NCBI GenBank assembly: GCA_029210625.1
Contig: JARGFU010000007.1
Coordinates: forward strand, 27,742 to 91,741
From: Deltaproteobacteria bacterium
GTDB lineage: Bacteria; Myxococcota; Myxococcia; SLRQ01
Reading direction: 5' to 3'
Length of the DNA stretch: 64,000 nt
Shown here one piece after another: positions 29,306 to 59,886 of this stretch; within the stretch, counting starts at the first letter, position 1, and each line of letters starts with the position of its first letter. The notes beneath the pieces are model-generated. The model worked only from the letters and a program-made list of their open reading frames with translations, had not been told where the DNA came from and did no database searches. The position numbers and the translations under genes are program-made.

Positions 29306-29421
29306 GGCAAACCTCCTTGAGGGGTCGCAATCGTTCGAGAGGGGTCCGCAACCTACCGCTCGCCCCCGGGCGCGGCAAGGACCGCCGTCCGGGGCCGGAG
29401 GGCCCTGGAACACGCTGTTTC

Positions 29422-29450
29422 AGCCGCCCGGAGCGTTCTTCCGGGCGGCT
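29422..29450 (-). terminator. Strong GC hairpin 17 nt downstream of the giant gene's stop; a putative intrinsic terminator
   Basis: The sequence agccgcccggagcgttcttccgggcggct forms an 11-bp perfect stem with a 7-nt loop. The downstream U-tract on the minus-strand transcript is weak. Confidence 0.4.
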
Positions 29451-29466
29451 CGGGGTGCGCGGAGCG

Positions 29467-32400
29467 CTAGCGTCGGCGCCGCCGCAGGGGCAGGGCCAGG
29501 AGCGCCAGCAGGGCCGCGAGGGCGATCCCGCCGCCGCCGACGTCGCTCTCGGACGCCATGCAGTTGCAGCCGCGGCCGGTGCCGACGTCCGGCGGCTCGG
29601 CGACGGTGAAGGTCCGGATCTCGCCGAAGCCGGTGCCGCCCTCGCTCCCCGCGATGGCGCAGAAGTAGTAGGTGCCCGCGCCGGGGTTGGGCAGCGTCTC
29701 GGCGAACTGCACCGCGAAGTTGCCGGCGCCCAGGATGGTGCCCTCGCCCTCGCCGGCGGGCACCCGGGTGCCGAAGCTGTCGTCGCAGGCGGCGGGCTCC
29801 TGCAGGCTGTAGCGGAACCAGCCCACCGCGTCGAAGCCCTGCGGGTTGCCGGAGCCGGCGAGGGTGACCTGCTGGGCGTTGGACGAGCTCGAGAGGGTCA
29901 ACACCAGCGGCGGCACGTCGGCGGTGGTGAAGGACTGCACGTTCCCGAAGGCCGCGCCCGCCAGGTTGCTGGCCGCGGCGCAGTAGTAGTAGGTCGTGCC
30001 GGGGCTCAGGCCGGCCGCGTTCACCGAGAAGGGCGCGGGGCTGAAGGCCGCGCCCAGGGCGATGCCGCCGGTGTCCGGCACCCGCTGGCCGAAGGCGTCG
30101 TCGCAGGTGCCCGGGTCGGTGTCACCGAGGCGGAACCAGCCGGTGGCCTCGGTGCCGTTCGGGGTCGCGGCGCCGGCCAGGGTGGCCGAGGTCCCCACCA
30201 CGTCCGTCGCCGGATCGGTGACCACGTCGGGCGCCGTGGCGCCGGTGGTGAAGGACTCGAGCTGCCCGAAGGTCATGCCCAGGCCGTTCTCGGCGATGGC
30301 GCAGTAGTAGTAGGTCACGCCCGGATCGAGGCCCGTGGCGGGCTCGGAGAAGGCGACCGGATCGACGCCGGCCCCGAGGTCGTGGCCGAGGGCGTCCGGC
30401 AGGCGGATGCCGAAGCTGTCGTCGCAGCTGCCGGGATCGACGCTGTCGATCCGGAACCAGCCCAGGGTCAGGTCGGCGTTGGGGTTGGCCGTGCCGTTGA
30501 GGACCGCCGAGGAGAGATCGACCCCGGTCGCCGGATCGGTGGTGACGCTCGGGTAGTCGGCCGGGGTGGTCAGCATCCGCACCTCGCCGAAGCCGAAGCC
30601 GTCGCTGTTCTGGGCGATGGCGCAGAAGTAGTAGGTGGTGTTCGGCGTCAGGCCGGTGAGGGTCTCGGTGAAGGGCGTGACCCCGGCGCCGGCGGTGATG
30701 GGGGTGCCGCCGCTGGCGGGGAGCCGGGTGCCGAAGAGGTCGTCACAGCTGCCCGGGCTGGTCGTGCCGTAGCGGAACCAGGCGGTGGTGGCGAGGGGGC
30801 CGGGTTCGGCCGTGCCGTGGAGGTCGGCGCCGGTCGCGACGATCTGGTCGGCCGGCTCGGTGGTGACCCGCGGCGAGCCGAGGGTGGTGAAGGAGAGGAC
30901 CGCCCCGAAGCCCAGGCCGGTGGCGTTCTGGGCGACGGCGCAGAAGTAGTAGGTCGTCCCCGCCGTGAGGCCCACCAGGCTTTCGCTGAAGGTGACCGGG
31001 CTGGTGCCCGAGCCCAGGGAGGTGCCGCCGAAGGAGGGCGCCCGCATCCCGAAGGTGTCGTTGCAGGTGCCCGGGCTGGTGGTGTCGTAGCGGAAGTAGC
31101 CGGTGGAGGCGCCGGCGTTCGGGTTGGCCACGCCCTCCAGGGTGGCGGTGGTGTGGCCGAGGCTGGTGGCCGCCAGGGTGGTGGTCGCCGGGGCCTCCAG
31201 GGTGGTGAAGGAGAGGACCGAGCCGATCCCCGTGCCGGTGGCGTTCTGCGCGATGGCGTAGAAGTAGTAGGTCGTGCCGGGCTGGAGGCCGGTGATGCCC
31301 TGGGTGTAGGGGACCGGGCTGCTGCCGGAGCCCAGGGCGGTGCCGGAGGCGGCCGGGGCCCGGGTGCCGAAGCTGTCGTTGCAGAAGACCGGATCCGCGG
31401 TGTCGTAGCGGAAGTGGCCGGTCGTCGCGGCGAGGTTCGGGTTCGCCGAGCCGCCGAGCACCGCGCTGCTGCCGGTGATCGAGGTGGCCGCCACGGTGGT
31501 CACCGAGGGGCTCGCCGGGGTGGTGAAGGAGAGGACCGTGCCGAAGCCCGGGCCGGTCGAGTTCGTGGCGATGGCGCAGTAGTAGTAGGTGGTGCTCGGG
31601 GTCAGGCCGGTGATGCCCTGGCTGTACTGCACGGCGCTGCCGCCGTTGCCGAGGCTGGTGCCTCCCGCGAAGGGCGCCCGCGTCCCGAAGGTGTCGTTGC
31701 AGCTCGACGGAGCGGTGCTCGCGTAGCGGAAGTAGCCGGTGCTGGCGGAGAGGTTGGGGTTCGCCCAGCCCTCGAGGGTGGCCCCGGTGCTGCTGACGCC
31801 GGTCGGGGGCAGGGTGGCGACCGTCGGCGCAGAGGGCGTCGTGAAGGAGAGCACGCTGCCGTAGCCGGCGCCGGTGGCGTTGGAGGCGATGGCGCAGAAG
31901 TAGTAGGTGGTCCCCGCCGTGAGCCCCGAGATGGCCTGCGAGTAGGGCACGGCGCTGCTGCCGTTGCCGAGGTCGGCGCCGCCGGAGGCCGGCATCCGCG
32001 TGCCGAAGCTGTCGTTGCAGAAGGTGGGATCCGTGGCGCTGTAGCGGAAGTAGCCCGTGGTGGCCGTCAGGTTCGGGTTGGCCGATCCGTTGAAGACCGC
32101 GCCGGTGCTGGTCACCGAGGTCGCCGCCACGGTGGTGACGGTGGGCTCGGCCGGGGTGGTGAAGGAGAGGACCGTGCCGAAGCCCGGGCCCTCGCTGTTG
32201 GTGGCGATGGCGCAGAAGTAGTAGGTGGTCGCCGGGGTGAGGCCGGTGATGCTCTCGGCGTAGGCCTGCGGGGCGCTACCAGCGCCGAGGTCGGCGCCGC
32301 CGCCGGCCGGGGCGCGGGTCCCGAAGGTGTCGTTGCAGGTGCCCGGGCTGGTGGTGGCGTAGCGGAAGTGGCCGGTGGTGGTCGAGGCGTTCGGATCCGC

Positions 32401-35400
32401 CGAGCCGTTCAGGGTCGCGCCCCAGCCGGAGAGGCTGGTGGCCGCCAGGGTGGTGACCGCGGGAGGCGCCAGGGTGGTGAAGGAGAGCACCTGGCCGAGC
32501 TCCAGGCCCACGGCGTTCTGGGCGATGGCGCAGAAGTAGTAGGTCGTCCCGGGGACGAGACCGGTGAGGGTCTGGGTGTAGGTCACCGGGGTGCCGCCGG
32601 CCCCGAGGGAGACGCCGCCGGTGGCCGGGGTCCGGGTGCCGAAGCTGTCGTTGCAGGCGCCCGGGTTCACGGGGCCGTAGCGCAACCAGCCGGTGGTGGC
32701 CGAGAGGTTCGGGTTGGCGCTGCCCTCGAGGGTGGCGGTGCTGCCGGCCACCCCGCTGGCGGCGAGGGTGGTGACGCTCGGGCTCGCGAGGGTGGTGAAG
32801 CTCTGCACCCCGCCGAAGGTGCGCCCCTCGGCGTTCACCGCCGCGGCGCAGAAGTAGTAGGTCGTCGCCGGCGAGAGGCCGGTGACCGCGAGGCTGTAGG
32901 GCACGGAGAGGTTGCCGGCGCCGAGCGCCTCACCGCCGGTGGAGGGGTGGCGGGTGCCGTAGGCGTCGCTGCAGGTGCCCGGCGCGGTGGTGCCGAGGCG
33001 GAAGTAGCCGGTGGCGGCCGCGAGGTTCGGATCGGCCGAGCCCTCGAGGGTCGCGCCGGTGCTGCTCACCGCCGTCGCGGCGAGGCTCGCCACGGTGGGC
33101 GCCGCCGGGGTGGTGAAGGAGAGCACGCTGCCGAAGTCGGTGCCGGTGGCGTTCTGGGCGATGGCGCAGAAGTAGTAGGTCGTCCCGGCGGCCAGGCCCG
33201 AGACGGCCTGCGTGAAGGGCACGTTCGCGCTGCCGGCGCCGAGGTTGGCGCCGCCCGAGGCGGGCGCCCGGGTACCGAAGCTGTCGTTGCAGACCGAGGG
33301 ATCGGTGCTGCTGTAGCGGAAGTAGCCGGTCGTGGGAGACAGGTTCGGGTTGGCCGAGCCGGCCAGGACCGCGCTGCTGCCCGTCACCGAGGTCGCGGGC
33401 GAGGTCACGACGTTGGGCGCCGCCGGCGTGCTGAAGCTCGAGATGGCGCCGAAGGAGGTGCCCTGGGCGTTACTGGCGATGGCGCAGTAGTAGTAGGTCG
33501 TCGCCGCGGAGAGGCCCACCAGGCTCTGGCTGAAGGGCACGGGGACGCTGCCCGAGCCGAGGCTCGCGCCGCCGGTGAGGGGAGCGCGGGTGCCGAAGCT
33601 GTCGTCACAGGCGCCGGGGTTGGTGGTGGAGTAGCGGAAGTGCCCGGTGGTGGCCGAGTTGCTCGGGTTGGCGGAGCCCTCGAGGGTGGCGCTCGTGGCC
33701 GCGACGGAGGTCGCGGGCGCGGTGGTCACCGTGGGCGGCGCCGCGGTCGTGAAGGAGAGGACGAGGCCGAAGCCGGTGCCGTAGGTGTTCGAGGCGATGG
33801 CGCAGTAGAAGTAGGTCGTGCCCGTCGTCAGGCCGGTGATGGCCTCGGAGAAGGGGACGCTGGCGCCGCCCGAGCCGAGGTCGGTGCCGCCCGCCGCCGG
33901 CACCCGGGTGCCGAAGGCGTCGTTGCAGACCCCCGGATCGGTGGTGGCGAAGCGGAAGTGCGCGGTGGTCGCCTCGAAGTTGGGGTTGCCGGAGCCGGTG
34001 AGGGTGGCGCCGGTGCCGGTCACCGCGGTCACGGCGCTGGTCAAGACGGTCGGCGCCGCGGCGGTGGTGAAGGTCTGCACGCCGCCGAAGCCCGTGCCCT
34101 CGGAGTTGGAGGCGATGGCGCAGTAGAAGTAGGTCGTCCCGGTCGAGAGGCCCGTGAGCGGCTCGCTGAAGGGCACGGGGCTGCTGCCCGACCCGAGCGA
34201 GGTGCCGCCGGCGGCCGGGAGCCGGGTGCCGAAGCTGTCGCTGCAGGTGCCCGGATCGGTGGTCGAGAAGCGGAAGTGCCCGGTGGCCGCCCGCAGGTTC
34301 GGGGTCGCCGAGGCCTGGAGGGTGGCGGTGGTGCTGGTCACGCCGGTGGCGGCCAGGGTCGCGACGGTCGGGGCCGCCGGCGTGGTGAAGGAGAGGACCG
34401 CTCCGTAGCCGTTGCCCGTGCCGCTCTGGGCGATGGCGCAGAAGTAGTAGGTCGTGCCGGCGCCGAGGCCGGTGAGGGCCTGCGAGTAGGGCACCGGGCT
34501 GCCGCCCGCACCGAGGGAGACACCGCCGGCGGCCGGGGCCCGGGTGCCGAAGCTGTCGTTGCAGGTGGTGGGGTCGGTGCTGCTGTAGCGGAAGTACCCG
34601 GTGGTCGCGTCGAGGTTCGGGTTCGCCGAGCCGTTGAGCACCGCGCTGGTGCTCGTGACCGAGGTCGCCGCAGCGGTGGTCACGGCGGGCAGGGTCGGCG
34701 TGGTGAAGGAGAGCACGGCGCCGAGGGCGGTGCCCTCCGCGTTGATGGCGATGGCGCAGTAGTAGTAGGTCGTGCCCGAGGCGAGGCCGGTGAGGACCTC
34801 GGTGTAGGCCAGCGGGGCGGCGCCCGAGCCGAGATCGGTCCCGCCCGTGGCCGGGACGCGGGTGCCGAAGCTGTCGTCACAGACCCCGGGGGAGGTCGTC
34901 GCGTAGCGGAAGTGGCCGGTGGTGGGGGAGCGGTTGGCGATCGCCGTGCCCTCGAGGGTGGCGCCGGTGGCCGAGACGGCGGTGGCCGGATCGGTGGTCA
35001 CGACGGGGACGTCGGCGGTGGTGAAGCTCTGGAGCACGCCGAAGCTCGTGCCCACCGCGTTGGTGGCGATGGCGCAGAAGTAGTAGGTCGTCCCGGCGGA
35101 GAGGCCGGAGAGGGCCTGGGTGTAGGGCACGGGGCTGCCGCCGCTGCCCAGGGAGGCGCCGCCGGTGGCCGGAGCGCGCAGGCCGAAGCTGTCGTCACAG
35201 ACCCCGGGGTCGGTCGTCGCGTAGCGGAAGTGGCCGGTGGTGGCCTCGAGGTTGGGATCGGCGGACGCCGAGAGGATCGCGCTGGAGCCGGTGATCGCCG
35301 TGGCGCTGCCGGTGGAGACCGAGGGGGCGTCGGCGGTGGTGAAGCTCAGCACGCCGCCGAAGGCCGTGCCCTCGGCGTTGGTGGCGATGGCGCAGTAGTA

Positions 35401-38400
35401 GTAGGTCGTCCCGGTCGAGAGGCCGGAGAGGGTCCGCGAGTAGAAGACGTCGGAGCTGCCCGCCCCCAGCGCGGTGCCGCCGGTGGCCGGGGTGCGCGTG
35501 CCGAAGGTGTCGTTGCAGGTCCCCGGATCGGTGGTGGCGTAGCGGAAGTGGCCGGTCGAGGCCGAGAGGTTGGGGTTGGCGGCGCCCTCGAGGGTCGCGC
35601 CGGTGCCGCTCACCGCCGAGGCGGCGAGGGTGGTCACCGCCGGCGCCGAGGGCGTGGTGAAGGAGATCACGCTGCCGAAGCCCGTGCCCGTGGCGCTCTG
35701 CGCGATGGCGCAGAAGTAGTAGGTGGTGCCGGAGGCGAGGCCGGTGAGGGAGTTGGAGTAGGGCACCGGGCTGTTCCCCGAGCCCAGGTCCGTCCCACCG
35801 GAGGCCGGGGTGCGGGTGCCGAAGCTGTCGTTGCAGGTGGTCGGATCGGTGCTGCTGTAGCGGAACCACCCCGTCGTGGCGTCGAGGTTGGGATCGGCCG
35901 AGCCGTTGAGCACCGCGCCGCTGCTGGTCACCGAGGTCGCCGCGGCGGTGGTCACCGTCGGCAGAGTCGGGGTGGTGAAGGAGAGCACGGCCCCGAAGGA
36001 GGTGCCCTCGGCGTTCGCCGCGATGGCGCAGTAGTAGTAGGTCGTCGAGGAGGCCAGCCCGGTGAGGACCTCGTCGTAGGGGAGGGCGCTGCTGCCGGCG
36101 CCCAGGGCGGTCCCGCCGGAGGCCGGGGCGCGGGTGCCGAAGCTGTCGTTGCAGGTGCCCGGATCGCTGGAGGCGTAGCGGAAGTAGCCGCTGGTGCCCG
36201 AGAGGTTCGGGTTGGCGGAGCCCTGGAGCGTGGCCCCGCTGGCGCTGACCGCAGTCGCCGCGAGGGTGCTCACGGTCGGGGCGTCGGGCGTGGTGAAGGA
36301 GAGGACGCCGCCGAAGGCGGTGCCCACGGCGTTCGTGGCCGCGGCGCAGAAGTAGTAGGTGGTCGAGGCGGAGAGGCCCGCGAGCACCTCGTCGAAGGAG
36401 ATCGGCGTGCCGCCGGCGCCCAGGTCGGTGCCGCCCGAGGCCGGGACGCGGGTGCCGAAGCTGTCGTTGCAGGTGCCCGGGTCGATCGTGCCGTAGCGGA
36501 AGTAGCCGGTGGCGGCGAGGAGCTGCGGGTTGGCCTGGCCGTCGAGGGTGGCGCCGGTGCTGCTCACGCCGCTGACGGCGACGGTGGTGACGGTCGGCGC
36601 CGCCGCGGTGGAGAAGGAGCGGACCACGCCGAAGCCGGTGCCCTCGGCGTTGTTGGCGATGGCGCAGTAGTAGTACGTCGTCCCGGTGGCGAGCCCGGTG
36701 ACGCTCTGGGTGTAGGGCACGGGCGCGCTGCCGGCGCCGAGGGAGGCGCCGCCGCTGGCCGGGGCCCGGGTGCCGAAGCTGTCGTTGCAGGTGCCCGGAT
36801 CCGTGGCGCTGTAGCGGAAGTAGCCGGTGGTCGGCGAGAGGTTCGGGCTGGCCGTGCCCTCGAGGGTGGCGCTGGTGCCCGTCACCGCGCTGGCGGTCAC
36901 GGTGGTCACCCCCGGCGGGCCGGTGGTGGTGAAGGAGAGCACGCCACCGAAGTCGAGGCCGGTGGCGTTCTGGGCGATGGCGCAGAAGTAGTAGGTGATG
37001 CCGCTCGAGAGGCCGCTGATGGCCTGGGCGAAGGCGATGGGGCTGCCGCCGGCGCCGAGGGAGGCGCCGCCGGTGGCCGGGGTGCGGGTGCCGAAGGTGT
37101 CGTCGCAGCTGGCCGGAGGCGTGGCCGAGTAGCGGAACCAGCCGGTGGTCGAGGAGAGGTTCGGGTTGGCCGAGCCGTTGAGGGTCGCGCCCGAGCTGGA
37201 GATCAGGCTGGCGGCGACGGTGGTGACCGTCGGGGTGGCCGGCGTGGTGAAGGTCGCCACGCTGCCGAAGCCGGTGCCCACGGCGTTCGAGGCGATGGCG
37301 CAGAAGTAGTAGGTGGTGCCCGAGGAGAGGCCGGTGATGGCCTGGGTGTAGGGCACGGCGATGTCGCCGGCACCCAGCGAGGCGCCGCCGGAGGCCGGGG
37401 CGCGGGTGCCGAAGCTGTCGTCGCAGGTGCCCGGATCGGTGGTGTCGTAGCGGAAGTAGCCGGTGCTGCCGTTCAGGTTGGGATCGGCCTGGCCGGCCAG
37501 GGTGGCCCCCGAGCTGGTGATCGAGCTGGCCACGCCGGTGGTCACCGTCGGGGCGGCGGGCGTGGTGAAGGAGAGGATCTCACCCACGGCGTTGCCCACG
37601 CTGCTCGAGGCGAGGATGCAGAAGTAGTAGGTCGTGCCCGGGTTCAGCGAGGTGACCGCCTGGGCGTGAGGCACCGGCGTGTTGCCGCCGCCGAGGTCCG
37701 CCCCGCCGGTGGCCGGGGTGCGGGTGCCGAAGGTGTCGTTGCAGGTGCCCGGGTTGGTGGTGCTGTGGCGGAACCAGGCGGTGGTGGGATCGCCGTTGGG
37801 GTTCACCGTGCCGTTGAGGGTCGCGCCGGTGGAGGCGATGGCCGTGGCCGCCAGGGTGGTCGCCGCGGGCGGCGCCGCCGGGGTGGTGAAGGAGAGGACC
37901 GGCCCGAGGGTCTTGCCCACGCTGCTCTCGGCGATGGCGCAGAAGTAGTAGGTGGTCGCCGGCGCGAGCCCGGAGAGGGGCTGGGCCATGGCGACCGGCA
38001 CCGAGCCGCTCCCCAGGGAGTAGGTCGTGGAGACCGTGCCGAAGGTGTCGTTGCAGCCCGCCGGATCGGTGGTGTCGTAGCGGAACCAGCCGGTGGTCGT
38101 GTAGCTGTTCGGGGTGATCGCGGCGTTGAGGGTCGCGGTGGTCGAGGTGACCGGCGTGGCGGCCAGGGTGACGACCGTCGGCGGGGTGGTCGTGGTGAAG
38201 CTGCGGACGGTGCCGAAGGAGATGCCCACCGCGTTCTGGGCGACGGCGCAGAAGTAGTAGGTCGTCCCCGGGGAGAGCCCGGTGATCGCCTGGGAGAAGC
38301 TGGTGTTGCTGGTGCCCGAGCCGAGGTTGGTGCCGCCGGTGGTCGGCGCCCGGGTCCCGAAGCTGTCGTTGCAGGTGCCGGGGCTGGCCGTGCCGTAGCG

Positions 38401-41400
38401 GTACCAGCCGGTGGTGGCGCTGCCCCAGGGGTTGGCGTAGCCGTTGAGGGTGGCGAGGGTGGGGCTGACGCCGGTGGCGCTGTTGGTGCCGACCGTCGGC
38501 TCCACGGAGTCGGTGGTGAAGGTCTGCACCGAGCCCCAGCTGGTGCCGTAGGAGTTCCGGGCCAGCGCGCAGTAGTAGTAGGTCGTCCCGGGCTGGAGGC
38601 TGGTGCGCGAGCGGGAGAAGCTCACGACCCCGGCGCCGGTGCCGAGGTAGGTGTCCGAGGTGCTCGAGGAGGGCCAGCGGGTGCCGAAGACGTCGCTGCA
38701 GACCCCGGGGTTCGAGGTCGAGAAGCGGAAGTAGCCGTAGGTCCCGTTGTTGTTGGGGTTGGCCGTGCCCTGGAAGACCACCGAGGAGGAGGTGATCGAG
38801 GTGGGCGGCTCGGTGGTGACGATCGGCGCGTCGGCGGTGGTCACGGAGACCACCGTGCCGAAGGCCGTGCCCTCGGCGGAGGAGACGATGGCGCAGTAGT
38901 AGTAGGTGGTGCCCGCCGAGAGGCCGCTGATGGTCTGGTTGAAGGAGACGCCCGAGGTGCCCGAGCCCAGGCTGGTGCCACCGGTGGTGGGCGCCCGGGA
39001 GCCGAAGGTGTCGTTGCAGGTGCCCGGGTCGGTGAGGGCGTAGCGGAACCAGCCGGTGGTGGCCGCGCCGTTCGGGGTGCCAGTGCCGTAGAGGCGCACC
39101 GAGGAGTTGGTGATGCTGCCCGCGGCCTCGGTGACCACCGTCGGCGGCGTCGGGGTGGTGAAGCTGACGATCGAGCCGAAGGTCTTGCCGACGCTGTTCT
39201 CGGCGATGGCGCAGTAGTAGTAGGTCGTGCCGGCGACGAGGCCGGTGATGTCCTCACTGAAGGAGACGTTGTTGGTGCCCGCGCCGAGGGCGTCCCCGCC
39301 GGTGGTGGGGGCCCGGGTGCCGAAGGTGTCGTTGCAGGTGCCGGGGCTGGTGGTCGAGTAGCGGAACCAGCCGGTGGTGGCCGCGCCGCCCGGGTCGGAG
39401 GCGCCGCGCAGGGTGGCGGTGGTGCCGGTCAGGTTGATGGCGCTGTAGGTCGTCGCGGTCGGGGCGTCGGGCAGGGTGGTGAAGGAGAGCACCGAACCCC
39501 AGCTGGTGCCGTAGGAGTTCCGGGCCAGGGCGCAGTAGTAGTAGGTCGTCCCGGGCAGGAGGCTGGTGTAGGAGCGGGCGTAGAAGACCGGGGCGCTGCC
39601 GGTGCCCAGGTAGGTGTCGGAGGTCGTGGAGCTGGGCCAGCGCGTACCGAAGCTGTCGCTGCAGGCGCCCGGATCGGTGGTGGAGAAGCGGAAGTAGCCG
39701 TAGGTGCCGGCGGCGTTGGGGTCGGCCGAGCCGTTGAAGAGCACCGACGAGGAGGTGATCGAGGTCGGCGGCTCGGTCGTCACCGTCGGCGCGTCGGCCG
39801 TGGTGAAGGTGATCACCGCGCCGAAGGCGGTGCCCTCGGCCGAGGAGACGATGGCGCAGTAGTAGTAGGTCGAGCCCACCGAGAGCCCGGCGATGGACTG
39901 GGAGAAGGAGACCCCGCTGGTGCCGGTGCCGAGGTTGGTGCCGCCGGAGGTGGGGGCGCGAGAGCCGAAGGTGTCGTTGCAGGTCCCCGGATCGGTGGGG
40001 CTGTAGCGGAACCACCCGGTGGTGGCGGAGCCGTTGGGCGTGCCGGTGCCGCGCAGGGTGGCGTCGTCCTGGGTGATCCCGGTGGCGGGATCGGTGGTGA
40101 CCAGCGGCGGGGTGGGCGTCGTGAAGCTCACCATCGAGCCGAAGGCCTTGCCCACGCTGTTCTCGGCGATGGCGCAGTAGTAGTAGGTCGTGCCCGCGAC
40201 GAGGCCGGTGACGTTCTCGTTGAAGGAGACCGTGCTGTTCCCGGCGCCGAGGGCATCACCGCCGGTGGTGGGGGCGCGGGTACCGAAGGTGTCGTTGCAG
40301 GTGCCGGGGCTGGCCGTGGCGTAGCGGAACCAGGCGGTGGTCGTGGCGCCGCCGGGGTTCGCGCCGCCCCGCAGCTGGGCGCCGGTGCCCGTCAGGGCGG
40401 TGGCGCTGTAGGTGCTCACCGTCGGCAGGGCGGCCAGGGTGGTGAAGGACTGCACGGTGCCCCAGGAGGTCCCGTAGGAGTTCCGGGCCAGGGCGCAGTA
40501 GTAGTAGGTGTTCCCCGGCAGGAGGCCCGTGAGGGTGCGGGCGAAGGGCACCGCAGCCGTGCCGGTGCCGAGGTAGGTGTCGGAGCTCGTCGACGAGGGC
40601 CAGCGGGTGCCGAAGCTGTCGCTGCAGGTGCCCGGGTTGGTGGTGGAGTAGCGGAAGAAGCCGTAGGCGCCGTTGCTGTTCGGATCACCGGTGCCGTTGA
40701 AGACCACCGAGGTGGCCGTGATCGAGTTCGGCGCCTCGGTGGTCACCGCCGGCACGTCGGCGGTGGTGAAGCTCATCACCGCGCCGAAGGCGGTGCCCTC
40801 GGCCGAGGCGGCGATGGCGCAGTAGTAGTAGGTGGTCCCGGCCGAGAGGCCGGAGATGGCGCGGGAGTAGGGGACCGCGGCGGTGCCCGAGCCCAGGCTG
40901 GTGCCGCCGGTGGTGGGCGCCCGCGAGCCGAAGACGTCGTCGCAGTCGGTGGGCTCGGTCAGGGCGTAGCGGAACCAGCCGGTGGTGGCCGAGCCGTTGG
41001 GATCGGCCTGTCCCCGCAGGGTGGCCCCGCTGTTGGTGAGGCCGGTGATGGTGTCGGTGGTGACGATGGGCGGCGTCGGCGTGGTGAAGCTGACGATCGT
41101 GCCGTAGGTCTTGCCCTCGCTGTTCTCGGCGATGGCGCAGTAGTAGTAGGTGGTGCCGGCGGTCAGCCCGGAGATGGTCTCGTTGTAGGAGACCGTGCTG
41201 GTGCCCGAGCCGACGTCGTCGCCGCCGGTGGTGGGGGCGCGGGTGCCGAAGGTGTCGTTGCAGGTGCCCGGGCTGGAGGTGTCGTAGCGGAACCAGGCGG
41301 TGGTGGCCGCGCCGCCCGGATCGACCCCACCGCGAAGCAGCGCGGTGGTGGCGGTCAGGCCGGTGGCGCTGTAGGTCGAGACCCCCGGCGGATCCGCGAG

Positions 41401-44028
41401 GGTGGTGAAGGACTGCACCGTGCCCCAGTTGGTGCCGTAGGAGTTCCGGGCCAGGCCGCAGAAGTAGTAGGTGGTGCCCGGCAAGAGTCCGGTGATCGTG
41501 CGCCCGAAGGGCACCGGATCGGTGCCGGTGCCGAGATAGGTGTCCGAGACGGTCGAGGAGGGGATGCGCGTCCCGAAGCTGTCGCTGCAGGTGCCGGGGT
41601 TGGTGGTGCTGTAGCGGAAGAAGCCGTAGGCGCCGTTGCCGTTCGGATCGCCGGTGCCGTTGAGGACGACCGAGGAGGAGGTGATCGAGGTCGCCGGCTC
41701 GGTGGTCGCGACCGGCGCGTCGGCGGTGGTGAAGGTGAGCACCGCGCCGAAGGCCGTGCCCTCGGCGGAGGTGACGATGGCGCAGTAGTAGTAGAGGGTG
41801 CCGGCCGAGAGGCCGCTGACGTTCTGGTAGTAGCTGACGGCGCTGCTGCCGGAGCCGAGGTTGGAGCCCCCGGTGGCGGGCGCGCGCGAGCCGAAGGTGT
41901 CGTTGCAGGTGACCGGATCGGTCGTGCTGTAGCGGAAGTGGCCGGTGGAGGTGGCCAGGTTGGGGGTGCCGGTGCCGTTGAGCCGGGCGCTGCTGTTGGT
42001 GAGGCTGGAGGCGGGCTCGGTCGTCGCCAGGGGCGGGGTGGGCGTGGTGAAGGTGCGGACGGTGCCGAAGGCGATGCCCACCGAGTTCTGGGCGATGGCG
42101 CAGAAGTAGTAGGTCTGGCCAGCGACCAGGCCGGTGACGGCGTCGTTGAAGCTCACCGTGCTGTTGCCCGAGCCGAGGTCGTCACCGCCGGTGGTGGGGG
42201 CGCGGGTGCCGAAGGTGTCGTTGCAGCTGCCGGGGCTGCTGGTGGAGAAGCGGAACCAGCCCGAGGTCGTGGCGCCGCCGGGGTTCGCCGAGCCGTTGAG
42301 CTGCGCCGTGGTGCCGGTCAGCAGGGTGGCGCTGCTGGTGCTCACCGTCGGGAGGGCCGCCAGGGTGGTGAAGGACTGCACGCTGCCCCAGTTCGTCCCG
42401 TAGGAGTTCCGGGCCAGGGCGCAGTAGTAGTAGGTCGTGCCCGGCACGAGGCTGGTGTAGGAGCGCGAGTAGTCGACCGGGACGTCGCCGGTGCCCAGGT
42501 AGGTGTCCGAGGTGCTGGAGGTGGGCCAGCGGGAGCCGAAGGCGTCGCTGCAGGTGCCGGGGTTGGTGGAGCTGAAGCGGAAGTAGCCGTAGGTGCCGTT
42601 GAGGTTGGGCGTGGCCGAGCCCTGGAAGACCGCGCTGGTCGCCGTGATGGAGGTCGGGGGGTTGGTGGTCACGTCCGGGGCGTCGGCGGTCTTGAAGGAG
42701 ACCACGGTGCCGAAGGCCAGGCCCTCGCTGTTCTGGGCGATGGCGCAGAAGTAGTAGGTCGTGCCGGCCGAGAGCCCGCTGACGTTCTGGTAGAAGGTGA
42801 TGGACGAGGTGCCCGAGCCGAGGGCCGAGCCGCCGGTGGCCGGCGCCCGGGAGCCGAAGACGTCGTCGCAGGTGCCCGGATCGGTGAGGCCGTAGCGGAA
42901 CCACCCGGTGGCCGAGGCGCCGCTGGGGATGGCCTCGCCGTTGAGGCGGGCGCCGCTGCTGGTGAGGCTGCTCGCGGGGTTGGTGGTGACGATCGGGGCC
43001 GAGGGCGTGGTGAAGCTGCGGACGGTGCCGAAGCTCTTGCCCACGCTGTTCTGGGCGATGGCGCAGAAGTAGTAGGTCGTCGCCGAGGAGAGGCCGGTCA
43101 CGCCCACGGCGTAGCCAACCGACGAGTTGCCCGAGCCGAGGGCCGAGCCGCCGGTGGTGGGGGCGCGGGTGCCGAAGACGTCGTCGCAGGAGGCGGGGTT
43201 GGTCGTGGAGTAGCGGAACCAGCCGGTGGTCGCCGCGCCGCCCGGGTTGGCCGAGCCGTTGAGCTGGGCGGAGGTGCCGGTGACGAGGGTGGCGCTGGAG
43301 GTCGAGACCACCGGGGCGTTGGCCAGGGCGGTGAAGGAGAGCACCTCGCCGAAGGAGGTGCCGTGGGTGTTACTGGCGATGGCGCAGTAGTAGTAGGTCG
43401 AGCCCGGCTGGAGGCCGGTGATGCCGCGGGTATAGGAGACCGGGGAGTTGCCGGAGCCCAGGGCGGTGCCGCCGCTGGCCGGAGCGCGGGAGCCGAAGCT
43501 GTCGTCACAGGTGCCCGGATCGATCGTGTCGTAGCGGAACCAGCCGGTGGAGGAGGCCGCGCTGGGGTTCGCCGAGCCCTCGAGGGTGGCGGTGGTGCTG
43601 GTGATGGCCGTCGCGCCGACGGTCGTCACGGCGGGGGCGCCCGGCACCGTGAAGGAGACGATCCCTCCGAAGGCGGTGCCCGAGGCGTTGTTCACGATCG
43701 CGCAGAAGTAATAGGTGACCCCCGAGGTCAGCCCCGTCGCGAGGATCGAGTAGGGGACCGAGCCGGTGCCCGAGCCCAGATCGGTGCCGCCGGTCACCGG
43801 CACCCGGGTGCCGAAGGCGTCGGTGCAGGTGCCGGGATCGGTGGCGCTGATCCGGAACCAGCCGGTGCTCTGCTCGCCGTTCGGGTTGCCCGTGCCGTTG
43901 AGCTGGGCCGAGGACGTCGTGATCGACGTCGCCGCCGAGGTCGAGGCCGTCGGCGCGGCGGCGAGCGAAGGAACGGCAGTCAGGAGAACCACTGCGGGCA
44001 GAAGAGCCCGGGCAAGAGCACGGCGCAT
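29467..44028 (-). CDS. Giant (4,853 aa) secreted protein of 45 tandem FN3-like repeats with a MYXO-CTERM-like sorting signal
   Basis: A single uninterrupted ORF. It has a signal peptide (MRRALARALLPAVVLLTAVPSLAAAP) followed by 45 repeats of about 106 aa. The consensus is ..P.VTT.AATS.T...A.LNGSANPN...TTG(W/Y)FRYS.TDPG.C.D.FG.RAP..GG..LG.G...V.....L.GL..GTTYY(Y/F)CAIA.N..G..FG.V.SFTT. The TTYYFxAxAxN 'tyrosine corner' is FN3-like. The C-terminus is GRGCNCMASESDVGGGGIALAALLALLALPLRRRRR. The product is very rich in Thr, Ser, Gly and Ala. Confidence 0.8.
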   Translation of the reverse strand: MRRALARALLPAVVLLTAVPSLAAAPTASTSAATSITTSSAQLNGTGNPNGEQSTGWFRISATDPGTCTDAFGTRVPVTGGTDLGSGTGSVPYSILATGLTSGVTYYFCAIVNNASGTAFGGIVSFTVPGAPAVTTVGATAITSTTATLEGSANPSAASSTGWFRYDTIDPGTCDDSFGSRAPASGGTALGSGNSPVSYTRGITGLQPGSTYYYCAIASNTHGTSFGEVLSFTALANAPVVSTSSATLVTGTSAQLNGSANPGGAATTGWFRYSTTNPASCDDVFGTRAPTTGGSALGSGNSSVGYAVGVTGLSSATTYYFCAIAQNSVGKSFGTVRSFTTPSAPIVTTNPASSLTSSGARLNGEAIPSGASATGWFRYGLTDPGTCDDVFGSRAPATGGSALGSGTSSITFYQNVSGLSAGTTYYFCAIAQNSEGLAFGTVVSFKTADAPDVTTNPPTSITATSAVFQGSATPNLNGTYGYFRFSSTNPGTCSDAFGSRWPTSSTSDTYLGTGDVPVDYSRSYTSLVPGTTYYYCALARNSYGTNWGSVQSFTTLAALPTVSTSSATLLTGTTAQLNGSANPGGATTSGWFRFSTSSPGSCNDTFGTRAPTTGGDDLGSGNSTVSFNDAVTGLVAGQTYYFCAIAQNSVGIAFGTVRTFTTPTPPLATTEPASSLTNSSARLNGTGTPNLATSTGHFRYSTTDPVTCNDTFGSRAPATGGSNLGSGSSAVSYYQNVSGLSAGTLYYYCAIVTSAEGTAFGAVLTFTTADAPVATTEPATSITSSSVVLNGTGDPNGNGAYGFFRYSTTNPGTCSDSFGTRIPSSTVSDTYLGTGTDPVPFGRTITGLLPGTTYYFCGLARNSYGTNWGTVQSFTTLADPPGVSTYSATGLTATTALLRGGVDPGGAATTAWFRYDTSSPGTCNDTFGTRAPTTGGDDVGSGTSTVSYNETISGLTAGTTYYYCAIAENSEGKTYGTIVSFTTPTPPIVTTDTITGLTNSGATLRGQADPNGSATTGWFRYALTEPTDCDDVFGSRAPTTGGTSLGSGTAAVPYSRAISGLSAGTTYYYCAIAASAEGTAFGAVMSFTTADVPAVTTEAPNSITATSVVFNGTGDPNSNGAYGFFRYSTTNPGTCSDSFGTRWPSSTSSDTYLGTGTAAVPFARTLTGLLPGNTYYYCALARNSYGTSWGTVQSFTTLAALPTVSTYSATALTGTGAQLRGGANPGGATTTAWFRYATASPGTCNDTFGTRAPTTGGDALGAGNSTVSFNENVTGLVAGTTYYYCAIAENSVGKAFGSMVSFTTPTPPLVTTDPATGITQDDATLRGTGTPNGSATTGWFRYSPTDPGTCNDTFGSRAPTSGGTNLGTGTSGVSFSQSIAGLSVGSTYYYCAIVSSAEGTAFGAVITFTTADAPTVTTEPPTSITSSSVLFNGSADPNAAGTYGYFRFSTTDPGACSDSFGTRWPSSTTSDTYLGTGSAPVFYARSYTSLLPGTTYYYCALARNSYGTSWGSVLSFTTLPDAPTATTYSAINLTGTTATLRGASDPGGAATTGWFRYSTTSPGTCNDTFGTRAPTTGGDALGAGTNNVSFSEDITGLVAGTTYYYCAIAENSVGKTFGSIVSFTTPTPPTVVTEAAGSITNSSVRLYGTGTPNGAATTGWFRYALTDPGTCNDTFGSRAPTTGGTSLGSGTSGVSFNQTISGLSAGTTYYYCAIVSSAEGTAFGTVVSVTTADAPIVTTEPPTSITSSSVVFQGTANPNNNGTYGYFRFSTSNPGVCSDVFGTRWPSSSTSDTYLGTGAGVVSFSRSRTSLQPGTTYYYCALARNSYGTSWGSVQTFTTDSVEPTVGTNSATGVSPTLATLNGYANPWGSATTGWYRYGTASPGTCNDSFGTRAPTTGGTNLGSGTSNTSFSQAITGLSPGTTYYFCAVAQNAVGISFGTVRSFTTTTPPTVVTLAATPVTSTTATLNAAITPNSYTTTGWFRYDTTDPAGCNDTFGTVSTTYSLGSGSVPVAMAQPLSGLAPATTYYFCAIAESSVGKTLGPVLSFTTPAAPPAATTLAATAIASTGATLNGTVNPNGDPTTAWFRHSTTNPGTCNDTFGTRTPATGGADLGGGNTPVPHAQAVTSLNPGTTYYFCILASSSVGNAVGEILSFTTPAAPTVTTGVASSITSSGATLAGQADPNLNGSTGYFRYDTTDPGTCDDSFGTRAPASGGASLGAGDIAVPYTQAITGLSSGTTYYFCAIASNAVGTGFGSVATFTTPATPTVTTVAASLISSSGATLNGSANPNLSSTTGWFRYSATPPASCDDTFGTRTPATGGASLGAGGSPIAFAQAISGLSSGITYYFCAIAQNATGLDFGGVLSFTTTGPPGVTTVTASAVTGTSATLEGTASPNLSPTTGYFRYSATDPGTCNDSFGTRAPASGGASLGAGSAPVPYTQSVTGLATGTTYYYCAIANNAEGTGFGVVRSFSTAAAPTVTTVAVSGVSSTGATLDGQANPQLLAATGYFRYGTIDPGTCNDSFGTRVPASGGTDLGAGGTPISFDEVLAGLSASTTYYFCAAATNAVGTAFGGVLSFTTPDAPTVSTLAATAVSASGATLQGSANPNLSGTSGYFRYASSDPGTCNDSFGTRAPASGGTALGAGSSALPYDEVLTGLASSTTYYYCAIAANAEGTSFGAVLSFTTPTLPTVTTAAATSVTSSGAVLNGSADPNLDATTGWFRYSSTDPTTCNDSFGTRTPASGGTDLGSGNSPVPYSNSLTGLASGTTYYFCAIAQSATGTGFGSVISFTTPSAPAVTTLAASAVSGTGATLEGAANPNLSASTGHFRYATTDPGTCNDTFGTRTPATGGTALGAGSSDVFYSRTLSGLSTGTTYYYCAIATNAEGTAFGGVLSFTTADAPSVSTGSATAITGSSAILSASADPNLEATTGHFRYATTDPGVCDDSFGLRAPATGGASLGSGGSPVPYTQALSGLSAGTTYYFCAIATNAVGTSFGVLQSFTTADVPVVTTDPATAVSATGATLEGTAIANRSPTTGHFRYATTSPGVCDDSFGTRVPATGGTDLGSGAAPLAYTEVLTGLASGTTYYYCAIAINAEGTALGAVLSFTTPTLPAVTTAAATSVTSTSAVLNGSANPNLDATTGYFRYSSTDPTTCNDSFGTRAPAAGGVSLGAGGSPVPYSQALTGLGAGTTYYFCAIAQSGTGNGYGAVLSFTTPAAPTVATLAATGVTSTTATLQASATPNLRAATGHFRFSTTDPGTCSDSFGTRLPAAGGTSLGSGSSPVPFSEPLTGLSTGTTYFYCAIASNSEGTGFGGVQTFTTAAAPTVLTSAVTAVTGTGATLTGSGNPNFEATTAHFRFATTDPGVCNDAFGTRVPAAGGTDLGSGGASVPFSEAITGLTTGTTYFYCAIASNTYGTGFGLVLSFTTAAPPTVTTAPATSVAATSATLEGSANPSNSATTGHFRYSTTNPGACDDSFGTRAPLTGGASLGSGSVPVPFSQSLVGLSAATTYYYCAIASNAQGTSFGAISSFSTPAAPNVVTSPATSVTGSSAVLAGSANPNLSPTTGYFRYSSTDPSVCNDSFGTRAPASGGANLGAGSANVPFTQAVSGLAAGTTYYFCAIAQNATGTDFGSVLSFTTPAAPTVASLAATAVSSTGATLEGSADPNLAAATGYFRLGTTAPGTCSDAYGTRHPSTGGEALGAGNLSVPYSLAVTGLSPATTYYFCAAAVNAEGRTFGGVQSFTTLASPSVTTLAASGVAGSTATLEGSANPNLSATTGWLRYGPVNPGACNDSFGTRTPATGGVSLGAGGTPVTYTQTLTGLVPGTTYYFCAIAQNAVGLELGQVLSFTTLAPPAVTTLAATSLSGWGATLNGSADPNASTTTGHFRYATTSPGTCNDTFGTRAPAGGGADLGAGSAPQAYAESITGLTPATTYYFCAIATNSEGPGFGTVLSFTTPAEPTVTTVAATSVTSTGAVFNGSANPNLTATTGYFRYSATDPTFCNDSFGTRMPASGGADLGNGSSAVPYSQAISGLTAGTTYYFCAIASNATGAGYGSVLSFTTPSAPTVATLPPTGVSSTGATLEGWANPNLSASTGYFRYASTAPSSCNDTFGTRAPFAGGTSLGNGGSAVQYSQGITGLTPSTTYYYCAIATNSTGPGFGTVLSFTTPASPSVTTVAATSITGSSAVLGGSANPNLAATTGHFRYDTADPVFCNDSFGTRAPAASGTALGSGSSPVPYTQGITGLQPGTTYYFYAIAQNATGTGIGSVLSFTTLEAPATTTLAATSLGHTTATLEGVANPNAGASTGYFRYDTTSPGTCNDTFGMRAPSFGGTSLGSGTSPVTFSESLVGLTAGTTYYFCAVAQNATGLGFGAVLSFTTLGSPRVTTEPADQIVATGADLHGTAEPGPLATTAWFRYGTTSPGSCDDLFGTRLPASGGTPITAGAGVTPFTETLTGLTPNTTYYFCAIAQNSDGFGFGEVRMLTTPADYPSVTTDPATGVDLSSAVLNGTANPNADLTLGWFRIDSVDPGSCDDSFGIRLPDALGHDLGAGVDPVAFSEPATGLDPGVTYYYCAIAENGLGMTFGQLESFTTGATAPDVVTDPATDVVGTSATLAGAATPNGTEATGWFRLGDTDPGTCDDAFGQRVPDTGGIALGAAFSPAPFSVNAAGLSPGTTYYYCAAASNLAGAAFGNVQSFTTADVPPLVLTLSSSSNAQQVTLAGSGNPQGFDAVGWFRYSLQEPAACDDSFGTRVPAGEGEGTILGAGNFAVQFAETLPNPGAGTYYFCAIAGSEGGTGFGEIRTFTVAEPPDVGTGRGCNCMASESDVGGGGIALAALLALLALPLRRRRR
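29580..43940 (-). repeat. Coding tandem-repeat array: 45 units of about 318 bp
   Basis: The period comes from the protein repeats. Units are diverged at nucleotide level; for example, the antisense mini-ORFs in different units are only about 50% identical. Confidence 0.75.
38480..43300 (-). repeat. Higher-order repeat zone: five copies of a 3-unit (A-B-C) super-repeat of about 320 aa (~960 bp)
   Basis: Repeats 3-17 of the protein alternate three sub-types. Type A has GWFRY...GGD.LG.GNSTVSFN...AIAENSVGK. Type B has PNGSATTGWFRY...AIVSSAEGTAFG...FTTADAP. Type C has (T/A)YG(Y/F)FR(F/Y)S...RWPSS.TSDTYLGTG...YYYCALARNSYGT(S/N)WG...FTTLAALP. Cognate units in different copies are about 85% identical. 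Confidence 0.65.
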
Positions 44029-44146
44029 GGGGCAACCCCTCCGGTTGGGTGTCGAGACGACCCAACGAGTTTAGGGGATCGCGCGCGGCCCGGATACGAT
44101 CGGAGCGAGGGGGGCGGATTTCCCCCGGAGAGCCCGAATTCGGGCT

Positions 44147-45544
44147 CTATTCGGCAGAAGTGGGGGGCTCGTCCCCCTCGTCATCCTCCCCGTCGGACCA
44201 GGCGGAGAGCTTCCGGTAGATCGTCCGGGTGGAGAGGCCCAGGAGGCGGGCGGCGAGCTGCTTGTCGCCCCTCGTCTGCTCCAGCGTCGCGAGGATCACC
44301 GAGCGCTCGATCTCCTCGAGGGGAGCGCCGACGGGCACCACCAGCTCCCGCCGCGCACCGCCGCGCTGCTGGGCGATCTCCTCGGGCAGCTCCGGGAGAT
44401 CGATCCGGTCGCCGCGGCAGAGGACGACGGCCCGCTGCACGATGTTCTGCAGCTGCCGCACGTTCCCGGGGAAGGCGAAGCCCTCCAGGGCGTTCATCGC
44501 GGCCTCGGTGAAGCCGGCGAGGTTCTTGCCGTTCTCCGAGGCGTAGCGGGCCAGGAAGTGCTGGGCGAGCAGCGGGACGTCTCCGCTGCGCTCGCGCAGG
44601 GGCGGCAGGGTCAGGGTGATGACGTTCAGGCGGTAGAAGAGATCCTCCCGGAAGGTGCCCTGGGACACCGCCTCGGAGAGGTCCTTGTTGGTGGCGGCCA
44701 GCACCCGGACGTCGGCCCGGAGGGTCTCGCCGCCGCCGAGCCGCTCGAACTCGCCGCTCTGCAACACCCGCAGGAGCTTGGCCTGCACCGGGGCGGAGAG
44801 CTCGCCGACCTCGTCGAGGAAGAGGGTCCCGCGATCGGCCCGCTGGAAGCGTCCGGCCCGCCGCGCCGAGGCGCCGGTGTAGGCGCCCTTCTCGACGCCG
44901 AAGAGCTCCGACTCCAGCAGGGTCTCCGGGATGGCCGCGCAGTTCACGGCCACGAAGGGGCCGTCGCTGCGCTCGGAGAGGGCGTGGAGGGCCCGGGCGA
45001 TCAGCTCCTTGCCGGTGCCCGACTCGCCCTGGAGGAGGACGGTGGCGTTGGAAGGGGCGGCCTGCCGCACCAGATCGAGGGAGGCGCGGAAGGCCGGAGA
45101 CTGGCCGATGAGCCCGTCGGGGGAGGCCAGGGTCTTCAGGCGGGCCCGCAGGGTGCGGTTCTCCAGGACGAGGGCCTGGCGATCGAGGGCCTTGCGGACG
45201 GCCTTCACGATCACCATCCGCTTGAGGGGCTTGGTGACGAAGTCGTAGGCCCCCTCCTTCATCGCCTCCACCGCGGTCTCCACCGTGCCGTGGGCGGTCA
45301 TCAGGACGACCTCGATCTCCGGGGCGATGGTCCGGACGGCGCGCAGCAGCTCGGTCCCGCTCATCCCCGGCATCATCAGATCGGTGAGGACGACGTTCAC
45401 CTCTTCTGCCCGGAGCAGCTCGAGGGCCTGCGCCCCGTTGGTGGCCTTCAGGACCTCCCACTCCTCGCGGGAGAAGATCCGCTCGAGGGAGTCGAGGTTC
45501 GACTGCTCGTCGTCGACGATCAGGACCTTGGGCGGGGCGTCCAT
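44147..45544 (-). CDS. Sigma-54-dependent response regulator (NtrC/Fis family: REC + AAA+ sigma-54 interaction + HTH)
   Basis: The product has a receiver domain (VLIVDDEQ...[12 protein letters not shown]), a Walker A motif GESGTGKE, a GAFTGA-like segment, and a C-terminal Fis-type HTH. Its start [12 protein letters not shown] was re-derived at 45544. Confidence 0.85.
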
Positions 45545-45561
45545 CTCACGCTCCTCCACGC

Positions 45562-46257
45562 TTACTTCCCGACGGGGGCGTGCACGCCGAGGGTGAGGGA
45601 GGGGAAGAGGACGTGCCCGCCCGAGCCCTCCGGCAAGGGGTGATCGATCCCGCCGCTCCAGTCGGTGACATAGCGGGACAACTTCAGAGGCACCCAGGTG
45701 ATTCCGGCGCCCAGGGAGAGCCAGTCGGTGGCGAAGGCCTCGGCCCGCAGGCCGAAGGCCAGGACCAGCCCGTCCATCGCCCGATCCTCGCCGATCACGC
45801 CGTAGCCGGCGCCCAGGTGGATCGACGCGTCCCACCAGCGGCGGGCGGTGGGGGAGAGCACCTCCAGCGCCTCCAGGAGGGCCGCCGGGTGCCAGCCCAG
45901 CTCGAGGGTGGCCAGGCCGGCGCCGCCCCGCTGGGAGCTGCCGAGGTCCCAGCCGTGGCCGCGCAGCTGCAGCAGGATGCTGGCGTGGCCCCGGATGTTG
46001 TAGCCGATGCCCAGGCCGAGCCCGAGGCTGTTCTCGGTCTGCTGCACCAGGAGGGGATCGACGAAGGGGCGCTCGAAGACCGGCACCTGATCCGCGATCC
46101 GGGGACCGTCCAGGGTCCAGGCGGAGTAGCCCGGCTCGAGGCGGATGGTCAGCCCCTCCTCCAGCCGGCGCTGGGGCTCGACCGGGGCGCCGTCCGCCCG
46201 GGCGAGGGCGGGCAGCAGGAGGAGGGCGAGGAGGGGGAGGGTGAGGCGGTGCGGCAT
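45562..46257 (-). CDS. Hypothetical secreted beta-rich protein, possibly a small outer-membrane protein
   Basis: The product has a signal peptide (MPHRLTLPLLALLLLPALARA) and Gly/aromatic-rich alternating segments. Confidence 0.45.
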   Translation of the reverse strand: MPHRLTLPLLALLLLPALARADGAPVEPQRRLEEGLTIRLEPGYSAWTLDGPRIADQVPVFERPFVDPLLVQQTENSLGLGLGIGYNIRGHASILLQLRGHGWDLGSSQRGGAGLATLELGWHPAALLEALEVLSPTARRWWDASIHLGAGYGVIGEDRAMDGLVLAFGLRAEAFATDWLSLGAGITWVPLKLSRYVTDWSGGIDHPLPEGSGGHVLFPSLTLGVHAPVGK

Positions 46258-59840: not shown

Positions 59841-59886
59841 GCCCGGGCCGCATGTGATATTGCGCCTGCCCCAGGAGGGGAGACTC

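Follow-up and report, generated by a model that had tools for sequence, protein, structure and literature searches.

The window analysed here, 64,000 bp of contig JARGFU010000007.1 (assembly GCA_029210625.1, Deltaproteobacteria bacterium), carries on its minus strand a giant gene (29467..44028) whose product consists of a signal peptide, then 45 units resembling fibronectin type III (FN3) domains, then a MYXO-CTERM-type tail. We find that the third to seventeenth of these units (U3-17, 38503-43317) are organized as five consecutive blocks of 963 bp or 321 amino acids (aa), each consisting of one A, one B and one C unit of 107, 106, and 108 aa, respectively. Taken as a whole, these data are quite probably best explained by an old and conserved ABC super-repeat in a MYXO-CTERM FN3 surface protein, which would evolve block by block and whose three subtypes would be kept by selection. 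A sequence-only reading of the same DNA, made before this analysis, had proposed five A-B-C super-units in repeats 3-17 at 38480-43300, and this arrangement is borne out.

The open reading frame (ORF) of the giant gene, recognized by its G+C content at third codon positions (GC3, 0.978) and by matches to fn3 and Pur_ac_phosph_N, encodes 4853 aa (~482 kDa and pI 4.4, as computed from the translation). Anchoring on the motif TYY[YF]C cuts the protein into its 45 units of 103-108 aa each. The unique N-terminal units U1 and U2 (43318..43956, minus strand, as for all the parts of the gene given here) have positional orthologues across genomes and precede the array. Super-unit 1 (U3 A, U4 B, U5 C; 42355..43317), of which U3 and U4 are the positional orthologues of units 3 and 4 elsewhere, is followed by super-unit 2 (U6 A, U7 B, U8 C; 41392..42354), super-unit 3 (U9 A, U10 B, U11 C; 40429..41391), super-unit 4 (U12 A, U13 B, U14 C; 39466..40428), which is the block modelled with AlphaFold2 (see below), and super-unit 5 (U15 A, U16 B, U17 C; 38503..39465); super-units 2, 3 and 5 are delimited by unit cutting, identity and block alignment. 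The array is closed by U18 (38182..38502), a degenerate A-type unit of 107 aa which falls in a clade with the A units. The region of U3-17 encodes residues 238-1842, the N-terminal third of the protein; its five blocks align in register with zero gaps, and the unit spacing of 107-106-108 is repeated five times.

The period of three units is found in pairwise identity as well as in phylogeny. Mean aa identity is 72, 70, 68, and 68% at lags 3, 6, 9, and 12, against 48-50% at every other lag, and at the nucleotide (nt) level the corresponding values are 77-79% against 64-66%; copies are thus more alike than adjacent units, which the sequence-only reading had made a condition of its proposal. Cognate units share on average 70% of their aa (58-81%) and 78% of their nt (73-85%), non-cognates 49 and 65%, and by type the cognate aa identity is 71% for A, 67% for B, and 73% for C. 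The figure of about 85% previously given for cognates is therefore too high as a mean; the most similar pair of units, U8-U11, has 81% aa and 85% nt identity, and the closest pair of super-units, 4 and 5, 77% aa and 81% nt. When the A/B/C labels were permuted, none of 20000 shuffles matched the observed contrast, and for nearly every unit of U3-17 the three best partners lie at multiples of 3, the sole exception being the third partner of U10. The phylogeny of all 45 units likewise shows clustering modulo 3: in a neighbour-joining tree A, B, and C are each monophyletic (bootstrap 59, 58, and 100%), and A together with U18 forms a clade (58%). Neighbour joining with bootstrap was used because clustering by the unweighted pair group method with arithmetic mean split off the C type only. 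All five C units are 108 aa long and carry the 2-residue insertion (SS.xSDTYLGTG) as well as the LARNSYG..WG motif, so that the description of this type in the sequence-only reading holds for every copy.

Two repeat searches at the DNA level recovered the monomer only. Tandem Repeats Finder reported a 318-bp monomer, since its longest period was 500, and a search with a 14-nt seed gave monomer families, in which the C units fall out of the gap-free families of generic units and leave spacings of 645. Within the array, lag-3 identity increases toward the C-terminal side, and the A, B, and C parts do not fully agree in their partners (C2-C3 share 81%, but B2-B3 only 61%), a pattern that would point to several events in different phases. 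By its lag peak, its position-wise phylogeny, and the synonymous-site ancestry described in the following, the A-B-C array is a multi-domain duplication unit, or protein super-repeat.

The age of the copies can be judged from their divergence and from synonymous sites. The super-units are pairwise 76-81% identical in nt, so that 19-24% of their bases differ; aligned in register, two of them share exact runs of 23-42 nt at the longest. At identical residues having four or more codons, the same codon is used in a fraction of 0.726 between cognates (n = 1678) and 0.669 between non-cognates (n = 2993), the background being 0.66-0.67 for any two units of the array and 0.59 as expected from codon usage; the proportion of synonymous differences (pS) is 0.25-0.27 between cognates and 0.32 between non-cognates. 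With a GC3 of 0.98, the synonymous sites have essentially two states. The weak synonymous excess in cognates argues for a true block duplication, and the fact that this signal is mostly erased argues for an old one. The edge units lead to the same view, since their nt identity to the orthologous units in other genera (L002 excluded) is 71-81%, a value close to that between the copies (78% nt). As judged from these values, the amplification of the super-repeat in this genome is old, and the array is, by its sequence, a poor substrate for homologous recombination today and would be a stable, diverged structure rather than a contingency locus; the long near-identical tracts expected of a recombination-driven contingency locus are absent between the five blocks. 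Neither the giant protein nor two of its neighbours had an exact match in the collections, and no sequence from the same species turned up; in a metagenome scan with the N-terminal 237 aa nothing exceeded 65% identity, and the closest sequences across the collections are 65-73% identical.

The layout is shared by other genomes. With a profile built from the first 237 aa, 65 loci were found in the genome collection; long ORFs of these relatives were cut with a hidden Markov model and their units typed by best BLAST hit to the units of the window. The order signal peptide-U1-U2-(ABC)n-A′-generic units-MYXO-CTERM is present in at least 10 other Polyangiaceae-like genomes. Five blocks are found in L002, L005, L008, L012, L015, and L016, which are Polyangium or Polyangiaceae metagenome-assembled genomes (MAGs), three or more in L001 (Chondromyces apiculatus DSM 436; complete, with 31 units), L013, and L045, and a single one in L020. 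Block length is exactly 963 bp in every relative where it is measurable. In five relatives that have five copies, and likewise in L001 and L020, the array is succeeded by an A-like unit; in L002 and L016 the unit at this place types as a full A. U1 and U2 share 71-81 and 63-75% of their aa, respectively, with the first and the second unit of the relatives, the positional counterpart being in each case the best match, and the complete relatives terminate in GCGC...RRRRR. The residues diagnostic of the subtypes are kept across 12 genomes (49 units per type): G25 in the NPGG of the B-C loop and P108 in the linker for A, S49 and E93, the latter in the F-G loop, for B, and the 2-aa insertion with D58, plus R90 and Y93 in the F-G loop, for C. 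Protein fragments from metagenomes show B-C-A unit orders as well. The giant ORFs of L004, L013, L016, and L020, which come from long-read or MAG contigs, end in an out-of-frame translation of the repeat (e.g., ...PRHLQ...), which would indicate frameshift errors or pseudogenisation, and their unit counts are consequently minimum values.

Outside this group, two Acidobacteria MAGs (Chloracidobacterium / Pyrinomonadaceae; L043 and L057) encode proteins of ~1950-1990 aa with the unit order CABCABCABCAB and a 321-aa period. The termini of these proteins are unrelated to those of the giant protein and lack MYXO-CTERM. Their sequences suggest a cross-phylum transfer of the triplet array or, alternatively, mis-binning.

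The comparison of copies within and between genomes bears on how the array evolves. Cognates within a genome have identities of 0.63-0.73 in most cases, 0.78-0.80 in L002, and 0.86-0.91 in L005, those between genomes 0.60-0.75, and the within-genome value is higher for all but the closest genome pairs. In the interior of the array, a shared position does not make the units of two genomes more alike than cognates placed elsewhere. The exceptions lie at the edges, where the best match is usually (U1-U4) or often (U17 and U18) the positional counterpart, and in L012/L016, the closest genome pair, of whose units 11 of 15 fall on the diagonal. Among the relatives, the blocks of L002, L012, and L016 are 73-79% identical in nt and may be regarded as frozen, those of L001 (84-87%) as recently homogenised. 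Stable edges together with alike interior copies are the classic signature of unequal exchange or conversion in a tandem array. We infer that the 963-bp block was multiplied through unequal recombination or slippage between cognates in an ancestor of the Polyangiaceae-like myxobacteria. Afterwards, whole blocks would have been gained and lost and the interior copies homogenised, while the edge units would have remained orthologous between genomes. In the genome studied here the last such events would be old, and the copies would since have drifted to their present identity of 76-81% nt.

This history has to be weighed against other explanations. The ancestor might have possessed a single ABC triplet, like that of L020 today, which was then amplified separately in each lineage without any ancestral homogenised array. 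We regard this as rather unlikely. It would account for the lack of interior positional orthology between most genomes, for the greater likeness of cognates within a genome, and for the relative with n = 1; however, exactly five blocks are shared by seven genomes, with an A-type or degenerate A-like unit after the array in every one of them, positional best matches across genomes are seen for the first A and B, the last C and U18, and L012 and L016 retain the diagonal of 11 of their 15 units. That the amplification is instead recent, with a potential for phase or length variation of a surface protein, was the view taken by the sequence-only reading; the array would then be a hot spot of RecA-mediated unequal recombination, which appears quite improbable to us. 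The array is indeed modular and in frame (963 = 3 x 321), block number differs among relatives (1, at least 3, 5), and both L005, with nt identity of up to 100% across 963 bp, and L001 possess very similar blocks. Here, however, block identity is only 76-81% and no exact run exceeds 42 nt, the synonymous codon choice is near the array-wide background, and the copies diverge about as much as genera do. Thus "recent" has to be given up, and a potential for present phase or length variation is not supported by runs of this size, whereas the growth by duplication of a three-domain block that the same reading had proposed is upheld by the perfect register, the shared insertions and deletions, the codon excess (0.726 against 0.669), and the whole-block differences among relatives.

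These last observations also bear on the possibility that no block was ever duplicated and that selection alone holds three functional subtypes alike among very old units that arose individually. The diagnostic residues are indeed conserved across genomes, and the lag-4 class of units described below reaches 71% aa identity without a synonymous signal, so that selection alone can keep classes alike. Cognates of the array, however, share more identical codons and have a lower pS, the lengths of 107-106-108 are exact, and genomes differ by whole blocks; we therefore consider an origin without duplication highly improbable. Lastly, the assembly of long arrays is difficult, and L005 and L065 may plausibly contain artefacts (see below). 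That the array of the window results from repeat copies mis-joined or duplicated by the assembler has nevertheless a negligible probability, since no assembler would confuse copies that differ at 19-24% of their bases, the reading frame is unbroken across 14.6 kb, and the same architecture is present in independent assemblies, large contigs included.

Several points weigh against the reading of an old, conserved super-repeat that we favour. The seven flanking proteins were compared by tblastn with all 65 related loci, and no neighbour is conserved beside the related giant genes; the flanks are not syntenic, so that protein architecture is the only basis for orthology. The mechanism of duplication proposed here would be read from the pattern of the copies. 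Copy numbers taken from MAGs and draft genomes may be wrong; in C. apiculatus, an unplaced contig of 1461 bp (L065) with the order CABCAB is only 90% identical to the placed array of L001, which makes three blocks a lower bound in this species. In L005, the 963-bp blocks of super-units 2 and 4 are 100% identical, owing to either a recent duplication or an assembly artefact. The ratio of nonsynonymous to synonymous substitution rates (dN/dS) between cognates is high (0.6-0.9), a value made unreliable by near-saturated synonymous sites and not taken as evidence of selection. A further idea, that ABC is a uniquely rigid predicted supradomain, was dropped because the generic triplet U27-29 scores alike in the structure models.

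These models, together with profile searches, define the fold of the units. The Pfam matches, Pur_ac_phosph_N (52 bits, cut-off 30) and fn3 (27.6 bits, cut-off 25), are confined to the C-terminal half of each unit. AlphaFold2 predicts the A-B-C triplet U12-14 with a mean predicted local distance difference test (pLDDT) score of 95.3 and a predicted template modelling (pTM) score of 0.74, and the generic triplet U27-29, used as control, with 95.8 and 0.76; both models are rows of three beta-sandwiches, each unit having 8-9 strands. All of the top 50 Foldseek matches in the PDB contain FN3 domains and have a probability of 1.0, and nearly all are tandems of such domains; those of contactin, LAR, fibronectin, and titin are the leading ones, and titin A84-A86 stands at rank 28. 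By profile score and predicted sandwich, the units are FN3-like (fibronectin type III / E-set) domains. Each unit has two conserved cysteines, except U40, which is without the second. According to the secondary structure of the model, the first lies in a long C-C′ loop and the second in strand F, and this Cys44-Cys85 pair may form a disulfide within the unit. In U40 (31192-31509) the sequence TTYYFYAIA is found where other units have TTYYFCAIA. The C-type insertion is modelled as a short helical turn in the C′-E loop.

The distinctness of the three subtypes calls for an explanation. Adjacent units are 50% identical in the super-repeat region vs 59-62% elsewhere in the giant protein, and the diagnostic residues sit in the B-C loop, in the C′-E loop insertion, and in the F-G loop. 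Their conservation across 12 genomes makes the functional specialisation of domain types suggested by the sequence-only reading plausible, and the A, B, and C subtypes would be kept distinct by selection. Tandem identical beta-sandwich domains can misfold through domain swapping (PMC4862688). Domain repeats usually expand by several domains at once, a mode that may be favoured by selection against aggregation (PMC1553488). Functionally, it would be most economical to suppose that dissimilar neighbours protect against inter-domain misfolding while allowing the protein to grow. The conserved loop residues could equally mark ligand or junction surfaces specific of each subtype. A more far-reaching proposal, which we hold to be decidedly unlikely, sees in the ABC triplet (321 aa, roughly 12 nm) a functional module conserved in a family of giant surface fibres of myxobacteria. 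In such a titin-like super-repeat, the B-C, C′-E, and F-G loops specific to each subtype would make up a periodic surface for binding or junctions, the number of copies (1, 3 or 5) would set reach or valency, and the triplet would be mobile enough to appear with the same period inside unrelated Acidobacteria proteins.

Both ends of the protein carry sorting signals. The N-terminal signal peptide, MRRALARALLPAVVLLTAVPSLAA (aa 1-24; 43957..44028), was recognized by direct reading of the sequence, and the homologous N-terminus of the relatives ends in AAAP. The C-terminal sorting tail (29470..29592) contains a GCNC motif, a hydrophobic helix (GGGGIALAALLALLALPL), and a terminal RRRRR; its TIGR03901 MYXO-CTERM score is 19.0 bits (cut-off 20) and its GC_trans_RRR score 15.3 (cut-off 15.85). 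The MYXO-CTERM tag of myxosortase substrates comprises a Cys motif, a hydrophobic helix, and an Arg cluster (PMC11980579), and this tripartite architecture is present in the giant protein together with the signal peptide. The Sec-exported protein would probably be anchored through this tail, and from its sequence it is most likely a lipid-anchored surface fibre exported through a type II secretion system (T2SS). Taking ~3.9 nm per domain, from 43 nm per 11 titin domains (PMC10665226), its extended length would be roughly 170 nm.

Beyond the array, the protein continues with the generic units U19-U45 of 106 aa (29593..38181). The sequence-only reading had treated units 18-45 as monomeric; this is correct only in part, as U18 is A-like, with 63-66% identity to four of the five A units and 60% to U9, and U21-41 (30874-37551) show a weak but significant lag-4 periodicity, reached by 3 of 20000 shuffles. 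This signal is driven mainly by U22/26/30/34/38, which share 71% aa, as do U25 and U29. No excess of shared synonymous codons was seen in this class when codon identity was scored at identical residues, and the pattern may be either very old or maintained by selection. The PNL motif, formerly regarded as the mark of units 18-45, is present in 15 of the units 21-40, but it occurs in U5 and U7 too.

The array resembles known repeat systems in part. Centromeric alpha-satellite higher-order repeats also have a multi-monomer amplification unit, a homogenised interior, and more diverged edges; they are non-coding and homogenised to >95% identity, whereas the ABC array encodes protein, is selected at that level, and has diverged much further. 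Rib/alpha-C, SasG/Aap, and Bap-type adhesins are large surface proteins with tandem beta-sandwich domains that change in length by whole repeats. Their repeats are typically near-identical in DNA and strain-variable, unlike the ABC copies, which are 76-81% identical.

Multi-domain duplication units were described by Bjorklund, Ekman and Elofsson 2006 (PMC1553488), an example being the 7-domain units of nebulin. Like these repeats, the ABC array has a similarity peak at a lag >1, an expansion by several domains in mid-array, and neighbours that are less alike than cognates. That survey is, however, mostly eukaryotic, with only seven bacterial proteomes, whereas the gene described here is intronless and bacterial, and unlike the cases in it the 3-domain unit is conserved at exactly 963 bp across many genomes. 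The super-repeats of the titin A-band consist of 7- and 11-domain units of immunoglobulin (Ig) and FN3 domains (PMC10665226). Both systems are built of tandem FN3-type domains whose sequence is conserved by position in the super-repeat; titin is intracellular and mixes Ig with FN3, whereas the units of the giant protein belong to one FN3-like family with a Cys pair and would be extracellular. Furthermore, the titin period fits the 43-nm repeat of myosin and MyBP-C, and no periodic partner is known for the ABC array. With the MrtX-processed MYXO-CTERM proteins, of which TraA is the prototype (PMC11980579), the giant protein shares a signal peptide, a tripartite tag, and a Myxococcota host. The likeness, seen in the sequence, does not extend to the passenger domain, since TraA is not an FN3 array; the Cys motif, too, is GCNC in the giant protein vs the generic GCGC.

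The growth mode of the array is thus familiar among repeat proteins, and no new mechanism is revealed by it. What the comparison provides is a fixed grammar, U1-U2-(ABC)n-A′, for the N-terminal third of a family of MYXO-CTERM FN3 proteins of roughly 0.3-0.5 MDa, and a well-resolved bacterial case of a higher-order repeat at the protein level that can be traced across many genomes. With an n of 1, at least 3, or 5 and with copies that are 75% to 100% identical, the relatives form a natural series in which concerted evolution of coding tandem arrays can be studied, and the family could be used to test whether alternating subtypes guard tandem beta-sandwich proteins from misfolding.

As for the genomic context, the G+C content of the giant gene is 0.53/0.66/0.98 at the three codon positions, that of the whole window ~72%, and the ATG at 44028 is preceded by a GGAGG at a distance of 9 nt. 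On the plus strand, an ORF of 5064 aa (29317-44511) runs antisense to the giant gene; its codon-position G+C (0.97/0.67/0.53) mirrors that of the minus-strand gene, and we therefore regard it as a shadow ORF, which a naive gene caller could report. Directly upstream on the same strand as the giant gene lies the gene for a sigma-54-dependent NtrC-type response regulator (44147-45835, minus strand; Response_reg, Sigma54_activat, HTH_8). A perfect hairpin, AGCCCGAATTCGGGCT, occupies 44131-44146 after the stop codon of this gene, within the spacer of 118 bp (44029-44146), in which no -24/-12 sigma-54 promoter (TGGCAC-N5-TTGC) was seen by eye. Downstream of the giant gene are genes for an aldehyde dehydrogenase, a class-III aminotransferase, and a sodium:solute symporter, and the remaining genes of the window are ordinary chromosomal ones. 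A second large putative surface protein, of 1083 aa and with a Big_1 / Invasin_D3 bacterial Ig-like domain, is encoded on the plus strand at 59746-62997.

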